From: Escherichia coli
Lineage (GTDB): Bacteria > Pseudomonadota > Gammaproteobacteria > Enterobacterales > Enterobacteriaceae
Assembly (NCBI RefSeq): GCF_003334305.1
Contig: NZ_QOWS01000016.1
DNA: 64,000 bases
Direction: 5' to 3' (one strand)
Shown: positions 2,683-34,035 of the stretch, piece by piece
Layout: each line of letters begins with the position of its first letter
Position numbering within the stretch: the first letter of the stretch is position 1
Translations under genes and position numbers: made by a program
Notes under the pieces: generated by a model
What the model was told of the DNA's origin: nothing
Database searches by the model: none
Seen by the model: the letters and a program-made list of their open reading frames with translations, nothing else

Positions 2683-4959
2683 ATGCTCAATCAAGAACTG
2701 GAACTCAGTTTAAATATGGCTTTCGCCAGAGCGCGCGAGCACCGTCATGAGTTTATGACCGTCGAGCACTTGTTACTGGCGCTGCTCAGTAACCCATCTG
2801 CCCGGGAGGCGCTGGAAGCGTGTTCTGTGGATTTGGTTGCGCTCCGTCAGGAACTGGAAGCCTTTATTGAACAAACCACACCCGTTCTGCCTGCCAGTGA
2901 AGAGGAGCGCGACACACAGCCGACGCTGAGTTTTCAGCGTGTACTGCAACGTGCGGTCTTCCATGTCCAATCCTCCGGTCGCAATGAGGTAACCGGTGCA
3001 AACGTTCTGGTCGCTATCTTTAGCGAACAGGAGTCGCAGGCGGCATATCTGTTGCGTAAACATGAAGTCAGCCGTCTCGATGTGGTGAACTTTATCTCTC
3101 ATGGCACGCGTAAAGACGAGCCGACACAGTCTTCTGATCCTGGCAGCCAGCCAAACAGCGAAGAACTAGCTGGTGGGGAGGAACGTATGGAGAATTTCAC
3201 GACGAACCTGAATCAGCTTGCGCGCGTGGGCGGAATCGACCCACTGATTGGTCGTGAGAAGGAGCTGGAGCGTGCTATTCAGGTTCTCTGCCGTCGCCGT
3301 AAAAACAACCCGCTGCTGGTGGGGGAATCTGGTGTCGGTAAAACCGCGATTGCGGAAGGTCTTGCCTGGCGAATTGTTCAGGGCGATGTGCCGGAAGTGA
3401 TGGCTGACTGTACGATTTACTCTCTCGATATCGGTTCTCTGTTAGCGGGCACTAAATATCGCGGCGACTTTGAAAAACGTTTTAAAGCGTTGCTCAAGCA
3501 ACTGGAGCAGGACACTAACAGCATCCTGTTTATTGATGAGATCCACACCATTATCGGTGCGGGGGCAGCGTCTGGTGGCCAGGTCGATGCGGCTAACCTG
3601 ATCAAACCGTTGCTCTCCAGCGGTAAAATTCGCGTAATTGGTTCGACAACCTATCAGGAGTTCAGCAACATTTTCGAGAAAGACCGTGCTCTGGCGCGTC
3701 GCTTCCAGAAAATTGATATTACTGAACCGTCGATCGAAGAAACTGTTCAAATCATCAATGGCCTGAAACCGAAGTATGAAGCGCACCACGACGTGCGTTA
3801 TACCGCAAAAGCGGTGCGTGCAGCGGTAGAGCTGGCGGTGAAATACATTAACGATCGTCATCTGCCGGATAAAGCCATTGACGTTATCGACGAAGCGGGC
3901 GCTCGCGCACGCCTGATGCCGGTAAGCAAACGCAAGAAAACCGTTAATGTGGCGGATATTGAGTCCGTGGTGGCCCGTATTGCGCGCATTCCAGAGAAGA
4001 GTGTTTCTCAGAGTGACCGCGATACCCTGAAAAACCTCGGCGATCGCCTGAAAATGCTGGTCTTCGGTCAGGATAAAGCCATTGAGGCGCTGACTGAAGC
4101 CATTAAGATGGCGCGTGCAGGTTTAGGTCACGAACATAAACCGGTTGGTTCGTTCCTGTTTGCCGGCCCTACCGGGGTCGGGAAAACAGAGGTGACGGTA
4201 CAGCTTTCGAAAGCGTTGGGCATTGAGCTGCTGCGCTTTGATATGTCCGAGTATATGGAACGCCATACCGTCAGCCGTCTGATTGGTGCGCCTCCGGGAT
4301 ACGTTGGTTTTGATCAGGGAGGTTTGCTGACTGATGCGGTCATCAAGCATCCACATGCGGTGCTGTTGCTGGACGAAATCGAGAAAGCGCATCCGGACGT
4401 GTTCAATATTCTGTTGCAGGTGATGGACAACGGTACGCTGACCGATAACAACGGACGCAAAGCGGACTTCCGTAACGTGGTGCTGGTGATGACCACCAAC
4501 GCCGGGGTACGTGAAACTGAGCGTAAATCCATTGGTCTTATCCACCAGGATAACAGCACCGATGCGATGGAGGAGATCAAGAAGATCTTTACACCGGAAT
4601 TCCGTAACCGTCTCGACAACATTATCTGGTTTGATCATCTGTCAACCGACGTGATCCATCAGGTGGTGGATAAATTCATCGTCGAGTTGCAGGTTCAGCT
4701 GGATCAGAAAGGTGTTTCTCTGGAAGTGAGCCAGGAAGCGCGTAACTGGCTGGCCGAGAAAGGTTACGACCGGGCAATGGGCGCACGTCCGATGGCGCGT
4801 GTCATCCAGGACAACCTGAAAAAACCGCTCGCCAACGAACTGCTGTTTGGTTCGCTGGTGGACGGCGGTCAGGTCACCGTCGCGCTGGATAAAGAGAAAA
4901 ATGAGCTGACTTACGGATTCCAGAGTGCACAAAAGCACAAGGCGGAAGCAGCGCATTAA
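2683..4959 (+). CDS. clpA: clpA, ATP-dependent Clp protease ATP-binding subunit (758 aa)
   Basis: ORF track 2668..4959; start trimmed to ATG 2683 ([10 protein letters not shown]) preceded by GGGGAGG SD; two AAA+ modules with Walker A GESGVGKT and GPTGVGKT. Confidence 0.96.
3176..3189 (+). promoter_or_regulatory. Internal ribosome-binding site plus in-frame ATG (Met169) inside clpA, consistent with internal initiation giving the shorter ClpA form
   Basis: GGAGG at 3176-3180 followed 6 nt later by in-frame ATG at 3187-3189 (…[11 protein letters not shown]…). Confidence 0.5.
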
Positions 4960-4984
4960 TCTGATTGTTAGGTAGGTTGGTCAA

Positions 4985-5020
4985 GTCCGTAATCTCGAAA
5001 GAGGTTACGGACTTTTTGTT
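4985..5020 (+). terminator. Rho-independent terminator downstream of clpA
   Basis: GTCCGTAATCTC-GAAA-GAGGTTACGGAC hairpin followed by TTTTTGTT. Confidence 0.75.
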
Positions 5021-5171
5021 TATGGGGTGGAGGAGGTTCAGACCCTTTTTTTAATGATGATGGTAAGTTGTTGATAATTAGTGCTGCGGGAAGGTAAGGA
5101 TAAAAAAGGGTGCTGCAGGAGAATGGGATGGTTTTGCTTTATTAACAACGGGCTAAACGTGTAGTATTTGA

Positions 5172-5259
5172 GTTCACTGCCGTACAGGCAGCTTAGAAAT
5201 CGACGGGGTGCGGTAAAACCTTTGCGAACGCGTTCACTGCCGTACAGACAGATAAAATG
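5172..5259 (+). CRISPR. Orphan type I-F CRISPR remnant: 2 repeats flanking one 32-nt spacer, no cas genes in window
   Basis: Repeat 1 5172-5199 GTTCACTGCCGTACAGGCAGCTTAGAAA (canonical I-F repeat); spacer 5200-5231; repeat 2 5232-5259 GTTCACTGCCGTACAGACAGATAAAATG (22/28 identical, degenerate terminal repeat). Confidence 0.85.
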
Positions 5260-5291
5260 CGAAAAAAAAGCTCGCACTTTCGTACGAGCTC
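5260..5291 (-). terminator. Terminator of serW tRNA gene
   Basis: Hairpin AGCTCGCAC-TTTC-GTACGAGCT at 5268-5291 with the A8 run 5260-5267 (U-tract on minus strand), immediately 3' of the tRNA. Confidence 0.6.
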
Positions 5292-5302
5292 TTCTTTAAA
5301 TA

Positions 5303-5390
5303 TGGCGGTGAGGGGGGGATTCGAACCCCCGATACGTTGCCGTATACACACTTTCCAGGCGTGCTCCTTCAGCCACTCGGACACCTCACC
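5303..5390 (-). tRNA. serW: tRNA-Ser (anticodon GGA), CCA encoded
   Basis: Minus-strand read GGTGAGGTGTCCGAGTGGCTGAAGGAGCACGCCTGGAAAGTG…GGTTCGAATCCCCCCCTCACCGCCA; long variable arm typical of tRNA-Ser. Confidence 0.95.
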
Positions 5391-5574
5391 AAATTGTTTT
5401 GCTACCAAACCTCATGGGTGGCAACGGGGCGCTACTATAGGGAGTTGGAGTAAAACGGTCAAGAAGAATTTTAATGATAATTATTGTTTGCTCATACTGT
5501 AAACAAGTTGTGCAGTATATCTACATCGAGACAAGTTACGGACTTATACTTCCAAAGTACTTCATACATATCAC

Positions 5575-5604
5575 AAAATAAAAAGGCCGGTTAAACCGAC
5601 CTTT
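5575..5604 (-). terminator. Terminator downstream of infA
   Basis: Hairpin GGCCGGTT-TAAA-CCGACC (with G-U pairs at RNA level) followed on minus strand by a U-tract (plus-strand AAAATAAAAA). Confidence 0.55.
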
Positions 5605-5643
5605 TACTCGTTCTTTCTCTTCGCCCATCAGGCGGTAAAACAA

Positions 5644-5865
<222 letters not shown>

Positions 5866-6146
5866 ATCCTCTGGGGTATCACTACCGTAATTTGAACCGG
5901 CAAGATAATGCCGAAGTTCTGTAAATAAGTAAAGATTTGCGCGCTAAATCGCAACAAACAGGTTCGGCACATTACTCCGAAAACACACGGCTAAGCCGCA
6001 CCAAAAGCGCAACGTATAAGGGAGCGGTGAGATAAACGATGGGCGTTACCTGACGCGAAAAATTCCTTATCGGCAGCGGGGTAATGAGCGTAACCAACTC
6101 TGCGACCGCAATTATAACACTCTGGGGAGAAATGTGCCGAAAACAT

Positions 6147-6851
6147 TCATTCTTGTGGTGAAAACAAGCATCGTGGTACCCAGAAATTATTCGGCAATCG
6201 TCCGAGGCGCATTTGATTGAGATAATTAAGGTAATCCCGGCGGGGAATTTCGCAGGCACCAAGCGATGCTGTGTGATCGTTAAGGACCTGGCAGTCGATA
6301 AGCTTACCGCCATGACCGATAAATTCCTCACAGAATACCAGAAGCGCCGTTTTAGACGCATTTTCCATCCGGCTGAACATGGACTCGCCACAAAATAGCG
6401 TTCCCTGGGCCACGCCGTACATACCGCCGACAAGCTCATCTTCACGCCAGACTTCAATGGAGTGGGCATGGCCGAGTTCGTGAAGGCGATGGTAGGCTTC
6501 GACCACGCCACGCGTGATCCAGGTTCCTTCTTCGCGATCGCTGGCACAGCCTTCAATGACCTGACCAAAAGCGTAATTCATCGTGACACGATAGGGCGAG
6601 CGTTTATGAAATCGCTTCATACTACGGCTGATATGCAGTGATTCTGGCCATAGCACCGCGCGGGGATCGGGCGACCACCAGAGGATGGGGTCGCCTGGAG
6701 AAAACCACGGAAAAATACCACGCTGGTAAGCCATTAACAGGCGCGCAGGGCTAAGATCGCCCCCAAGTGCCAGCAGGCCGTTAGGCTCACGTAATGCGCC
6801 TTCCGGGGAAGGGAAGGCTATTGAATGGCGAGAAAGCTGAACCAGGCGCAT
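6147..6851 (-). CDS. aat: aat, leucyl/phenylalanyl-tRNA--protein transferase (234 aa)
   Basis: ORF 6147..6851; protein [50 protein letters not shown]; synteny infA-aat-cydC. Confidence 0.93.
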
Positions 6852-6892
6852 GACCGCAAAACTCCACGCAAGTCGGATCGTTCAATAATAGC

Positions 6893-8614
6893 TTACAAAC
6901 CCTGCTTGAACTGGTAATAACGCCCCTGTCTGGCAAGCAGCTCTGCGTGAGTACCTTGCTCAATAATTTGCCCGTTGTCCATCACTATTATTTGTTGGAA
7001 ACGAGAGAGTCCGCGAAGTCGATGGGTGACCATTAACACCGTTTTCTCACGCATCATTTCTGCAAGCAATTCAAGGATCTGGCTTTCGGTTGTGGCATCT
7101 AAGCCTTCGGTAGGTTCATCCAGCAACACCAGTGGCGCATCATGTAACAGCGCACGGGCGATAGCCAGACGGCGCAGTTCACCACCGGAGAGCTGGCGTC
7201 CGCCTTCACCTAACCAACTGTTGAGACCTGCATCCTCGAGCAGCTTCTCCAGGCCAACGCGACGCAAGCTCTCCGCCAGAGCCTCATCACTACTGCCAGG
7301 CGAGGCGAGTAACAGATTATCACGCAGCGTGGCGCTAAACAGATGCACTCGCTGAGGAACAACGCTGATGGTCTGTCGTAGAGCCGCTTCATTCAGGCTG
7401 GCTATGGGGCTATCGTTAAGCAAAATCTCGCCCTGTTGCGGGTCCCAAGCGCGGGTCAGCAGTTGTAACAGTGTTGATTTGCCGCATCCGGTTCGCCCGA
7501 GAATCGCAATATGTTCCCCGGCGTTTACCTGAAGAGAAATCCCTTTAAGTGCCTGTTGGGATTGCTCCGGATAAGTGAACTGAACATCCCGTAATGTCAG
7601 CGAAACGCGATCGGCAACACGAGTTTGGGTATCAGGGAAGGTGACTTCCGGTTTTTGATCCGTTAAATCAGTGATCCGAACGGCAGAGGCAATGACTTGC
7701 CCCAGATGCTGAAATGCACCCGTTACTGGTGCCAGTGCTTCAAACGCGGCTAACGCGCAGAAGACAAACAGGGCAATTAACGCGCCGGGTTGAGCATTGC
7801 CGCCAACGCCGCCAGACGCCATCCACAGCATCAGGATCACCGCTAACGCGCCAATGAGTAGCATTATCGCTTGCGACAATGCGGTCAGTTCAGATTGACG
7901 GCGTTGCGCTTCCAGCCATTGAATTTCTGTATTCTCTAGTTGCGTGCGATAACGATCGCTGGCACCAAAAATGGTCAGCTCAGCTTGCCCTTGCAGCCAG
8001 GCCGTCAGTTGTTGGCGATACTGTCCGCGAAGATGAGTCAGATTTTGCCCGGTGCTTTTTCCCGCACGATAAAACAGCGGTGGCATCAGGAAAAGCGTCA
8101 GTAACATAATGCCGCCCAGCGTAAAGGCGAGGGTGAAATCAAGGAAACTTAACCCGATTGTCACCACCATAATCACCACAAAAGCGCCCACCAGCGGCGA
8201 GATAACGCGCAGATAAAGATGATCGAGCGTATCAACATCCGCCACCACGCGATTGAGCAATTCGCCCTGACGATAGCGCGCCAGTCCGGCAGGGGAGAGG
8301 GGCAGCAATTTGCTGAAGGTGTAAATGCGCAGATGCTGCAACACGCGGAAAGTCGCGTCGTGACTTACCAGACGTTCAAAATAACGCCCGGCAGTACGGG
8401 TGATTGCTGCGCCACGCACGCCCGCAGCGGGTAGCATATAGTTGAAGCTGTACAGTCCGGCAACCCCCGCAACCGCTGAGGCCGAGAGGAACCAGCCGGA
8501 AAGTGTCAACAGACCGATACTGGCGAGCAGCGTGACAATTGCCAGCACGATACCAAGACTTAACATCCATTTATGACGTTTATACAGTGCCAGATAGGGT
8601 AGCAAAGCGCGCAT
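6893..8614 (-). CDS. cydC: cydC, glutathione/cysteine ABC exporter subunit (573 aa)
   Basis: N-terminal 6-TM domain plus ABC ATPase (GRTGCGKST Walker A, LSGGE signature); stop of cydD abuts start. Confidence 0.95.
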   Translation of the reverse strand: MRALLPYLALYKRHKWMLSLGIVLAIVTLLASIGLLTLSGWFLSASAVAGVAGLYSFNYMLPAAGVRGAAITRTAGRYFERLVSHDATFRVLQHLRIYTFSKLLPLSPAGLARYRQGELLNRVVADVDTLDHLYLRVISPLVGAFVVIMVVTIGLSFLDFTLAFTLGGIMLLTLFLMPPLFYRAGKSTGQNLTHLRGQYRQQLTAWLQGQAELTIFGASDRYRTQLENTEIQWLEAQRRQSELTALSQAIMLLIGALAVILMLWMASGGVGGNAQPGALIALFVFCALAAFEALAPVTGAFQHLGQVIASAVRITDLTDQKPEVTFPDTQTRVADRVSLTLRDVQFTYPEQSQQALKGISLQVNAGEHIAILGRTGCGKSTLLQLLTRAWDPQQGEILLNDSPIASLNEAALRQTISVVPQRVHLFSATLRDNLLLASPGSSDEALAESLRRVGLEKLLEDAGLNSWLGEGGRQLSGGELRRLAIARALLHDAPLVLLDEPTEGLDATTESQILELLAEMMREKTVLMVTHRLRGLSRFQQIIVMDNGQIIEQGTHAELLARQGRYYQFKQGL

Positions 8615-18899: not shown

Positions 18900-20213
<1,314 letters not shown>

Positions 20214-20237
20214 TACCCAATTTTTCTGAATCTAAAA

Positions 20238-20260
20238 AGCGCCTGCGGGCGCTTTTTTTG
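20238..20260 (+). terminator. Rho-independent terminator of serS
   Basis: AGCGCC-TGCG-GGCGCT hairpin followed by TTTTTTTG. Confidence 0.8.
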
Positions 20261-20267
20261 TCTCCCT

Positions 20268-20281
20268 TTGATACCGAACAA
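20268..20281. promoter_or_regulatory. Candidate FNR site in dmsA promoter
   Basis: TTGATaccgAACAA matches TTGAT-N4-ATCAA at 9/10 positions, about 170 bp upstream of the dmsA ATG. Confidence 0.5.
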
Positions 20282-20451
20282 TAATTACTCCTCACTTACA
20301 CGTAATACTACTTTCGAGTGAAAATCTACCTATCTCTTTGATTTTCAAATTATTCGATGTATACAAGCCTATATAGCGAACTGCTATAGAAATAATTACA
20401 CAATACGGTTTGTTACTGGAATCAATCGTGAGCAAGCTTGAGTGAGCCATT

Positions 20452-22896
20452 ATGAAAACGAAAATCCCTGATGCGGTATTGGCTGCTGAGGTGAGTCGCC
20501 GTGGTTTGGTAAAAACGACAGCGATCGGCGGCCTGGCAATGGCCAGCAGCGCATTAACATTACCTTTTAGTCGGATTGCGCACGCTGTCGATAGCGCCAT
20601 TCCAACAAAATCAGACGAAAAGGTTATCTGGAGCGCCTGTACAGTTAACTGTGGTAGTCGCTGCCCGCTACGTATGCACGTCGTGGACGGTGAAATCAAA
20701 TATGTCGAAACGGACAATACCGGCGATGACAATTACGACGGCCTGCACCAGGTTCGCGCCTGTCTGCGTGGGCGTTCCATGCGTCGCCGTGTCTACAATC
20801 CGGACCGCCTGAAATATCCGATGAAACGAGTCGGGGCGCGCGGTGAAGGCAAATTCGAGCGCATTAGCTGGGAAGAAGCCTACGACATCATCGCGACCAA
20901 TATGCAGCGCCTGATCAAAGAGTACGGCAACGAGTCTATCTATCTGAACTATGGCACCGGTACGCTGGGCGGCACCATGACCCGCTCCTGGCCGCCGGGA
21001 AATACCCTGGTCGCGCGCCTGATGAACTGCTGCGGCGGTTATCTTAACCATTACGGTGACTACTCTTCTGCGCAAATTGCGGAAGGTTTGAACTATACCT
21101 ACGGCGGCTGGGCAGATGGTAACAGCCCGTCGGATATCGAAAACAGTAAATTGGTAGTGCTGTTTGGTAATAACCCAGGCGAAACGCGAATGAGTGGCGG
21201 TGGGGTGACTTACTATCTTGAACAGGCACGCCAGAAATCTAATGCCCGCATGATCATCATCGATCCGCGCTATACCGACACCGGTGCCGGGCGCGAAGAT
21301 GAGTGGATCCCTATTCGTCCAGGAACAGATGCCGCACTGGTTAACGGTCTGGCGTATGTCATGATCACCGAAAACCTGGTGGATCAGGCATTCCTTGATA
21401 AATATTGCGTTGGCTACGATGAGAAAACCCTGCCCGCTAGCGCGCCGAAAAATGGCCACTATAAAGCTTATATTCTGGGTGAAGGGCCAGATGGCGTGGC
21501 TAAAACACCGCAATGGGCCTCGCAAATCACCGGTATCCCGGCAGAGAAAATCATTCAACTGGCACGGGAAATCGGCAGTACCAAACCGGCGTTTATCAGC
21601 CAGGGATGGGGGCCACAGCGCCACGCCAACGGCGAAATCGCGACTCGCGCTATCTCGATGCTGGCGATTCTGACCGGTAACGTCGGTATTAACGGAGGCA
21701 ACAGCGGCGCGCGTGAAGGTTCATACAGCTTACCGTTTGTCCGTATGCCGACCTTGGAAAACCCGATCCAGACCAGCATTTCGATGTTTATGTGGACCGA
21801 TGCCATTGAACGTGGCCCGGAAATGACAGCGCTGCGTGATGGTGTACGCGGGAAAGATAAGCTGGATGTGCCGATCAAAATGATCTGGAACTATGCCGGT
21901 AACTGCCTGATTAACCAGCATTCTGAAATCAACCGTACCCATGAAATCCTTCAGGATGATAAGAAGTGCGAGCTGATTGTGGTTATCGACTGCCACATGA
22001 CCTCATCGGCGAAATATGCTGACATCCTGCTGCCTGACTGCACCGCTTCCGAACAGATGGACTTTGCACTGGATGCATCCTGCGGGAATATGTCTTACGT
22101 GATTTTCAACGATCAGGTGATTAAACCGCGCTTTGAATGTAAGACCATCTATGAAATGACCAGCGAACTGGCAAAACGTCTTGGCGTTGAGCAACAGTTT
22201 ACTGAAGGCCGTACACAGGAAGAGTGGATGCGGCATCTGTATGCCCAGTCGCGGGAAGCGATTCCTGAACTGCCAACGTTTGAAGAGTTCCGCAAGCAGG
22301 GGATCTTTAAAAAGCGCGACCCACAAGGGCATCACGTTGCTTATAAAGCCTTCCGTGAAGATCCGCAGGCAAACCCACTGACTACGCCATCGGGCAAAAT
22401 TGAGATTTATTCGCAGGCGCTGGCTGACATTGCCGCTACCTGGGAATTGCCAGAAGGCGATGTGATCGATCCACTGCCGATCTACACGCCGGGCTTTGAA
22501 AGTTATCAGGATCCGCTGAACAAACAGTATCCGCTGCAGCTTACGGGTTTCCACTATAAATCTCGCGTTCACTCAACTTACGGCAACGTTGATGTGCTGA
22601 AAGCGGCTTGCCGTCAGGAAATGTGGATCAACCCGCTTGATGCGCAAAAACGCGGTATCAACAACGGCGATAAAGTCAGGATCTTTAACGATCGTGGTGA
22701 AGTTCATATTGAGGCGAAAGTGACGCCACGAATGATGCCGGGTGTGGTCGCACTGGGTGAAGGTGCCTGGTATGACCCGGATGCAAAACGTGTCGATAAG
22801 GGCGGTTGTATTAACGTACTGACCACTCAACGTCCGTCTCCTCTCGCTAAGGGGAATCCGTCACATACAAACCTTGTTCAGGTTGAAAAGGTGTAA
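20452..22896 (+). CDS. dmsA: dmsA, anaerobic DMSO reductase molybdopterin catalytic subunit (814 aa) with Tat signal
   Basis: Twin-arginine motif SRRGLVK in N-terminus; Cys cluster CTVNCGSRC; recognisable molybdopterin oxidoreductase. Confidence 0.96.
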   Translation: MKTKIPDAVLAAEVSRRGLVKTTAIGGLAMASSALTLPFSRIAHAVDSAIPTKSDEKVIWSACTVNCGSRCPLRMHVVDGEIKYVETDNTGDDNYDGLHQVRACLRGRSMRRRVYNPDRLKYPMKRVGARGEGKFERISWEEAYDIIATNMQRLIKEYGNESIYLNYGTGTLGGTMTRSWPPGNTLVARLMNCCGGYLNHYGDYSSAQIAEGLNYTYGGWADGNSPSDIENSKLVVLFGNNPGETRMSGGGVTYYLEQARQKSNARMIIIDPRYTDTGAGREDEWIPIRPGTDAALVNGLAYVMITENLVDQAFLDKYCVGYDEKTLPASAPKNGHYKAYILGEGPDGVAKTPQWASQITGIPAEKIIQLAREIGSTKPAFISQGWGPQRHANGEIATRAISMLAILTGNVGINGGNSGAREGSYSLPFVRMPTLENPIQTSISMFMWTDAIERGPEMTALRDGVRGKDKLDVPIKMIWNYAGNCLINQHSEINRTHEILQDDKKCELIVVIDCHMTSSAKYADILLPDCTASEQMDFALDASCGNMSYVIFNDQVIKPRFECKTIYEMTSELAKRLGVEQQFTEGRTQEEWMRHLYAQSREAIPELPTFEEFRKQGIFKKRDPQGHHVAYKAFREDPQANPLTTPSGKIEIYSQALADIAATWELPEGDVIDPLPIYTPGFESYQDPLNKQYPLQLTGFHYKSRVHSTYGNVDVLKAACRQEMWINPLDAQKRGINNGDKVRIFNDRGEVHIEAKVTPRMMPGVVALGEGAWYDPDAKRVDKGGCINVLTTQRPSPLAKGNPSHTNLVQVEKV

Positions 22897-34021: not shown

Positions 34022-34035
34022 TTGATATAGATCAT
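34022..34035. promoter_or_regulatory. Candidate FNR site in the focA-pflB upstream regulatory region
   Basis: TTGATatagATCAT, 9/10 match to TTGAT-N4-ATCAA, about 60 bp upstream of the focA start. Confidence 0.45.

Follow-up and report, generated by a model that had tools for sequence, protein, structure and literature searches.

The serS-dmsA intergenic region of Escherichia coli: the FNR-dependent promoter P1 of dmsABC and its candidate NarL and ModE-type sites

At class II FNR promoters, when oxygen is absent, an FNR dimer carrying a [4Fe-4S] cluster binds in the −35 position and recruits RNA polymerase. The dmsABC operon, which encodes the anaerobic DMSO/TMAO reductase, is a showcase example in the genome-wide study of Myers et al. 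(2013; PMC3688515), where it was assigned to Category 1 (direct FNR activation) with one FNR site at −41.5. According to Bearson et al. (2002), as quoted in PMC11363960, the dmsA promoter prefers an FNR target at −41.5 like other class II promoters, and the text quoted in the same article describes NarL as protecting a large region over the FNR and RNA polymerase sites at dmsA. Control of dmsA by ModE is stated in PMC12096835, which cites McNicholas (1998). The −41.5 FNR box, the repression by NarL, and the ModE dependence of dmsABC are already known and have been in the literature and databases for more than 20 years. The FNR box of dmsA P1 has reportedly also been attributed to Eiglmeier 1989 and to Lamberg and Kiley 2000.

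Here, we analyzed this locus in a 64,000-nucleotide stretch of an E. coli contig (NZ_QOWS01000016.1), hereafter called the window, and all positions below are numbered from its first letter. The binding of FNR, the dependence on FNR and anaerobiosis, and the placement of the site at −41.5 come from the literature, as does the finding that NarL protects the sites of FNR and polymerase; for the −41.5 placement and the NarL footprint, the sources were Myers et al. (2013) and secondary quotations of Bearson et al. (2002). The present work established the sequence and its geometry, its conservation, and how published chromatin immunoprecipitation (ChIP) peaks map onto the FNR box.

Geometry, published data, and conservation of dmsA P1

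The region lies between two open reading frames of the window, serS (18921 to 20213) and dmsA (20452 to 22896, with its ATG at 20452), and in strain MG1655 the gene order is rarA-serS-dmsA-dmsB-dmsC-ycaC. Sequence comparison showed that the serS-dmsA intergenic region is base for base that of K-12 MG1655, with an identity that spans 20127 to 20762, and the K-12 literature is therefore directly applicable to it. The source strain is not a K-12 strain; its differences from MG1655 are of the synonymous type and are found in the flanking genes only, with none in the promoter. A 371-bp stretch around the FNR box occurs with 100% identity in many complete genomes of E. coli, in which the genes are annotated serS and dmsA. 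Coordinates in NC_000913.3 equal those of the window plus 920,507, and coordinates in NC_000913.2 equal those of the window plus 919,730, the latter obtained via the dmsA start at 940182 given by Kim (2012).

We consider the feature between the two genes to be, almost certainly, dmsA P1, the class II FNR-dependent sigma-70 promoter of the dmsABC operon. The initial annotation, which was made by eye, had placed an FNR-type site directly after the serS terminator and had expected a transcript that started around 20316 with a leader of about 135 nt, and all of these readings were supported. The FNR-type site TTGATACCGAACAA lies at exactly 20268 to 20281 and agrees with TTGAT-N4-ATCAA in 9 of 10 positions, the sole mismatch being an A for T at 20278, and it begins 8 nt past the T-run of the terminator, which extends to 20259. 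The center of this FNR box of dmsA P1 (TTGATaccgAACAA, plus strand) is at 20274.5. Counting 41.5 from there, with the −41.5 of Table 1 in Myers et al. (2013), gives a predicted start (+1) at the G at 20316 on the plus strand and a leader of 136 nt. The −10 hexamer AATACT at 20304 to 20309 (plus strand), which is part of the conserved block TAATACT (20303 to 20309), leads to the same +1 and the same leader length. The box covers the −35 position and the −10 hexamer follows about 30 bp downstream of the box center, which is the arrangement of a class II promoter.

P1 lacks a usable −35 element, which is typical of class II promoters that depend on an activator, and because of this it was not called by a scan for sigma-70 consensus promoters. 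The scan did call a promoter overlapping the FNR box, TTGTCT-16-AATAAT at 20258 to 20285, which we rejected because most relatives have not kept the final T of its −10 hexamer (they read AATAAC or AATACC) and because nothing else supported it. A literature search for the sequence of the box itself returned no match.

The in vivo data agree with this geometry. Table S5 of Myers et al. (2013; PMC3688515) places an FNR peak at 939,992, which each of the three ChIP-seq algorithms detected, as did ChIP-chip and an earlier ChIP-chip study, while Table 1 of the same paper gives the center of the dmsABC FNR peak as 940,035. A sigma70 peak at 940,050 rose from a signal of 30.8 under aerobic conditions to 447.5 under anaerobic conditions (Tables S1 and S2; PMC3688515). 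In window coordinates, the two FNR peaks correspond to positions near 20262 and 20305 and the sigma70 peak to one near 20320, so that they bracket the box center (20274.5) and the predicted start (20316); the FNR peak centers are 12 to 31 bp off the box center, a deviation no larger than the resolution of the method. A further study recorded an Fnr-bound region at 939760 to 940277 and listed dmsABC as a known activation target (Federowicz et al., 2014). The published FNR ChIP-seq and ChIP-chip peaks thus map onto the FNR box. The PatSer position weight matrix (PWM) gave the dmsABC site an ln(p) of −10.34 (Table S5; PMC3688515), a score just below the cutoff of −10.75 that Myers et al. applied when predicting sites across the genome. 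In expression data from the same paper (PMC3688515), the aerobic/anaerobic ratio of dmsA was 0.018 (Table S12), and each of the three fnr data sets scored dmsABC as "Activated" (Table S8).

The aerobic transcription start site data set of Kim (2012) holds no start at 20316, which fits an anaerobic-only promoter, although such a result is uninformative and is not positive evidence. Three starts that this aerobic data set assigns to dmsA lie inside serS, at window positions 19905, 19974, and 19978, with 2 to 3 reads each. They are 474 to 547 nt upstream of the dmsA ATG and are probably noise or processing products of serS.

Conservation was examined in a comparative set of 80 loci from Enterobacterales and Vibrionaceae that encode DmsA-type N termini, and in an alignment (A1) of 21 serS-dmsA intergenic regions from Enterobacteriaceae. 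The pattern TTGA[T/C]-N6-CAA was present upstream, on the coding strand, in 73 of the 80 loci compared with 1.1 expected from shuffled sequences, and a control search of the dmsA coding sequence gave 0 matches. Across the 73 loci, the spacing between the FNR box and a −10-like hexamer was constant. In A1, the invariant parts were the TTGA and CAA of the box, a palindrome at 20355 to 20378, and the ribosome-binding region; the (T)AATACT at 20303 to 20309 was invariant or near-invariant, and the terminator was nearly so.

A separate observation concerns position 11 of the box (20278), where the consensus has the T of the right half-site ATCAA. A purine occupies this position in 71 of the 73 dmsA-type promoters (A in 48 and G in 23), unlike the neighboring spacer positions of the box, which vary freely. 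The purine looks like a conserved suboptimal half-site, a reading that comes from phylogenetically related sequences and carries no formal test.

The locus serves as a positive control: inspection by eye identified a genuine class II FNR promoter and also gave the right start and leader length. Its discovery value is small; the promoter had previously been mapped and tested, and both FNR ChIP and start-site mapping have been published.

NarL and ModE-type sites around the start and in the leader

The 5′ untranslated leader of dmsABC (20316 to 20451, plus strand) is AT-rich, as the initial annotation had stated, with a GC content of 0.30 to 0.37. It showed no significant RNA structure (fold z = −1.29) and no plus-strand Rfam family at threshold, and the subthreshold Rfam matches (STnc420, RNAI, STnc40, and Atu_C9) all fell on the terminator hairpin. 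The leader ends with a Shine-Dalgarno-like sequence, GAGTGAG, at 20440 to 20446 (plus strand), 5 nt before the dmsA ATG, and in this region the alignment columns 20441, 20442, and 20444 to 20446 are invariant in A1. We also observed that the block GTGAGCA...AGTGAG at 20432 to 20446 contains several positions that are invariant in A1, which exceeds what a Shine-Dalgarno sequence alone would need.

The initial annotation had further suggested that the leader may hold additional NarL or other operator sites. Such sites are indeed present, in the form of a NarL heptamer at 20327 to 20333 and a ModE-type element at 20355 to 20378, but one NarL heptamer lies outside the leader, at 20286 to 20292. 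Both heptamers are on the plus strand and match TACYYMT perfectly: TACTCCT at 20286 to 20292 (−30 to −24) is located between the FNR box and the −10 hexamer, and TACCTAT at 20327 to 20333 (+12 to +18) is located in the leader. Across the window, NarL heptamers occur at chance frequency, with 28 found versus 29 expected, and we credited these two only because they lie inside the region that NarL protects according to the quoted text.

NarL and NarP also bind inverted pairs of heptamers in a 7-2-7 arrangement, for which we used the definition and the palindrome TACCCCTAAAGGGGTA given in PMC4549865. A high-affinity 7-2-7 pair is absent from the E. coli dmsA promoter, where the best candidates have 3 to 4 mismatches; one of them, the degenerate NarL/NarP pair TCCTCAC-TT-ACACGTA at 20289 to 20304 (−27 to −12), has 4 mismatches in E. 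coli. Among the 73 loci, a pair with at most 3 mismatches was found in 41, compared with 2.7% of shuffled sequences, and 30 of these 41 shared one offset, +7 from the FNR box. Many other genera (among loci L005 to L074) carry a 7-2-7 pair with 0 to 2 mismatches that begins 7 nt after the FNR box and ends in the −10 hexamer, TACCCCTATATGAGTA being an example. Seen beside these, E. coli has a decayed pair and, in its place, one perfect heptamer that is displaced by 3 nt.

The strongest element of the leader is, judged from its sequence, a ModE-type operator, CGATGTATA-caagcc-TATATAGCG, at 20355 to 20378. It forms a 9-6-9 inverted repeat centered at 20366.5 (about +51.5), 92 bp away from the center of the FNR box, and differs from CGnTATATA-N6-TATATAnCG by 1 mismatch when the pattern is taken as degenerate and by 2 when it is taken strictly. 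No other 9-6-9 element of this type was found in the window. In about 32 loci, a ModE-type match with at most 3 mismatches lies 86 to 94 bp (mostly 92 bp) from the center of the FNR box, whereas matches of this quality were seen in 0.3% of shuffled sequences. The FNR box, the position of the NarL 7-2-7 pair, and the ModE-type operator are in register across Enterobacteriaceae, and this arrangement could guide work on downstream-bound ModE at an FNR promoter.

Related elements were noted at other positions as well. Some genomes of Proteus, Providencia, and LSJC7 have a similar element about 90 to 105 bp upstream of the FNR box instead, and in some Citrobacter genomes a good second ModE-type element follows 31 bp downstream of the first. 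For E. coli, we considered a second ModE site around 20382 to 20405 and rejected it, since its 6 mismatches are at chance level.

The serS terminator and alternative readings of the conserved region

The serS intrinsic terminator, AAAAAGCGCC-tgcg-GGCGCTTTTT followed by a T-run, occupies 20234 to 20259 on the plus strand, with the two arms of its stem at 20234 to 20243 and 20248 to 20257. The hairpin has a predicted energy of −16.3 kcal/mol (z = −3.8) and is nearly invariant in the 21 Enterobacteriaceae; a rule-based terminator scan did not call it. Since the terminator is symmetric, it should be able to terminate transcription on either strand.

The terminator also appears to serve mobile DNA in other strains. 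Of 5426 complete E. coli genomes, 354 lacked a single match covering 80% of the 371-bp query, and in the two such genomes that were examined, as well as in E. albertii, a P2-like prophage with integrase, Cox, ogr, and tail genes lies between serS and dmsA (at about 4925 to 6022 in locus L084, about 4087 to 8108 in locus L085, and about 1285 in locus L002). The core AAAGCGCCTGCGGGCGCTTTTT (20236 to 20257), which corresponds to the terminator hairpin, is present at both kinds of prophage junction, and from these junction sequences we take it to be the attachment site of P2-like prophages in those strains. The dmsA promoter is intact 11 nt downstream of the attachment core.

The strand opposite to P1 carries a match to the Rfam family RF02084 (STnc130, a predicted enterobacterial sRNA) at 20227 to 20361 (minus strand), antisense to dmsA P1 and ending at the serS terminator; it was absent from the initial annotation. 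The match covers model positions 1 to 135 of 135 and scores 140.1 bits against a gathering threshold of 55. The conserved block could therefore also, or instead, be read as an antisense sRNA gene that runs on the minus strand from about 20361 across dmsA P1 to the serS terminator at about 20227, a reading that we consider very unlikely. Besides the full-length match, it has on its side the symmetric terminator, which could work on the minus strand, a TATATA located 9 nt upstream of the modeled 5′ end, and a minus-strand RNA that folds somewhat better than shuffled sequences (z = −2.74).

Against these points stands the origin of the family itself. STnc130 began as an sRNA predicted by computation in the serS/dmsA spacer of Salmonella. 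In Salmonella under standard conditions, Sittka et al. (2008) obtained 0 cDNA reads for it from either library, and their Northern blot result was "no detectable transcript" (Table S3 of that study); a 2013 listing still named it a "putative sRNA." The only helix in the STnc130 model is the serS terminator read backwards, and an RNAalifold consensus fold of sequences from 15 genera returned the terminator hairpin only, with 0 compensatory pairs. No promoter-like site on the minus strand passed the promoter scan, and the −35 region there is poor. The conserved columns coincide with the palindromic FNR and ModE DNA sites and with the −10 hexamer, while the spacers vary. The match is thus probably not a real RNA gene: given a model that has no structure beyond the serS terminator, it reflects promoter conservation, and most likely the STnc130 family mirrors the conserved DNA sites of the promoter together with the terminator. 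Users of Rfam should be aware that STnc130 probably describes a conserved promoter and terminator and not an RNA.

The ModE-type operator overlaps the TATATA at 20370 to 20375, the sole good element of the once-predicted STnc130 antisense promoter, and this overlap allows a further scheme, to which we likewise give very little credence. The antisense promoter would fire when ModE or molybdate is lacking, across P1 and into the bidirectional terminator, and ModE-molybdate would "activate" dmsABC from +51.5 by silencing this interference. If true, the scheme would explain why STnc130 went unseen in molybdenum-replete cultures and why the distance from the FNR box to the ModE-type element is held at about 92 bp across some 30 genera.

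The initial annotation had also noted a second, much poorer TTGAT-containing sequence with a weak second half-site. The sequence TTGATTTTCAAATT is indeed found at 20338 to 20351 (plus strand; +23 to +36 relative to the P1 start), and its second half is weak, AAATT agreeing with ATCAA at 1 of 5 positions, but a function of this sequence as an FNR site is not supported. A reading with two FNR sites, in which the box at −41.5 is accompanied by a weak site at +23 to +36 that modulates or represses P1, is even less probable than the antisense gene. It can draw on the TTGAT pentamer at 20338 to 20342, but the match as a whole reaches only 6 of 10 consensus positions, and among the 21 Enterobacteriaceae of A1 the pentamer is confined to Escherichia. 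Moreover, Myers et al. (2013; PMC3688515) counted one dmsABC FNR site even at a permissive PWM threshold. In the same stretch, an integration host factor (IHF) reading of AATCAAAGAGATA on the minus strand (20331 to 20343) was considered and rejected, such matches occurring at chance level (61 hits versus 54 expected).

Finally, the FNR motif alone is not significant in the window, where matches to the consensus with one mismatch occur at chance frequency (4 versus 2.5 expected from shuffled sequences), and the significance of the box comes instead from its position in the promoter, its conservation, and the published binding in vivo. The possibility that the 9/10 match arose by chance and plays no part in regulation, which this frequency and the lack of any sign of function at two of the four matches (26306 and 57468) might suggest, is negligible, being contradicted by the conservation in 73 of 80 loci against 1.1 expected and by the fixed spacing to the −10 hexamer, and effectively refuted already by the published ChIP data and FNR-dependent expression. 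Another of the four matches, TTGATATAGATCAT at 34022 to 34035, is the FNR site of focA(-pflB) listed in Table S6 of Myers et al. (2013), with an ln p of −12.86 and a ChIP-seq peak.

Proposed mechanism and comparison with known promoters

With the region read as dmsA P1, the data agree with what is established for class II FNR promoters. Under anaerobic conditions, an FNR dimer occupies TTGATaccgAACAA (20268 to 20281), where a −35 element would otherwise be, and brings RNA polymerase to the −10 hexamer AATACT (20304 to 20309), with transcription beginning from about 20316. Nitrate overrides this activation: phospho-NarL, which would bind the heptamers at 20286 to 20292 and 20327 to 20333 and weaker ones over the core promoter and the first part of the leader, occludes both FNR and RNA polymerase. 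ModE-molybdate on the leader operator at 20355 to 20378 may couple expression to the supply of molybdenum and would be needed for full expression. Three elements of this scheme, the exact +1 base, the choice of NarL heptamers, and the action of ModE from a downstream site, are ones that we infer, and the action of ModE would seem to be the least understood step of the P1 mechanism.

The promoter in the window and dmsA P1 of K-12 are the same locus; they share the box, the −41.5 geometry, and the operon, and the promoter shows no difference. The inverted repeats of modA (CGTTATATT-N6-TACATAACG) and moaA (CGCTATATA-N6-TACATAGCG), which we take to be ModE operators, have the same 9-6-9 architecture as the dmsA element. 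The ModE operator of modA overlaps its promoter and represses it, whereas the dmsA element lies past the start, near +51.5, and a positive role has been reported for ModE there. The Rfam family RF02084 matches the window end to end on the minus strand, and it was founded on a prediction that went undetected.

With regard to NarL, the closest parallel is the frdA promoter, which is activated by FNR and repressed by NarL through a 7-2-7 site at −4/+6 (PMC4549865). The logic is the same in both promoters, phospho-NarL over the core promoter overriding FNR. However, unlike frdA, dmsA of E. coli has single heptamers and a degenerate 7-2-7 pair, while in many other genera a good 7-2-7 pair is found at −27 to −12 of dmsA. 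Compared with the class II FNR promoters narG, nirB, and ydfZ, which have FNR at −41.5 (Table 1 of Myers et al., 2013), dmsA P1 shows the same box over the −35 position and a recognizable −10 hexamer. It departs from consensus class II FNR sites in its right half-site, which has a purine for T in 71 of 73 dmsA-type promoters, and from narG in the role of NarL, which acts as a coactivator at narG and represses at dmsA.
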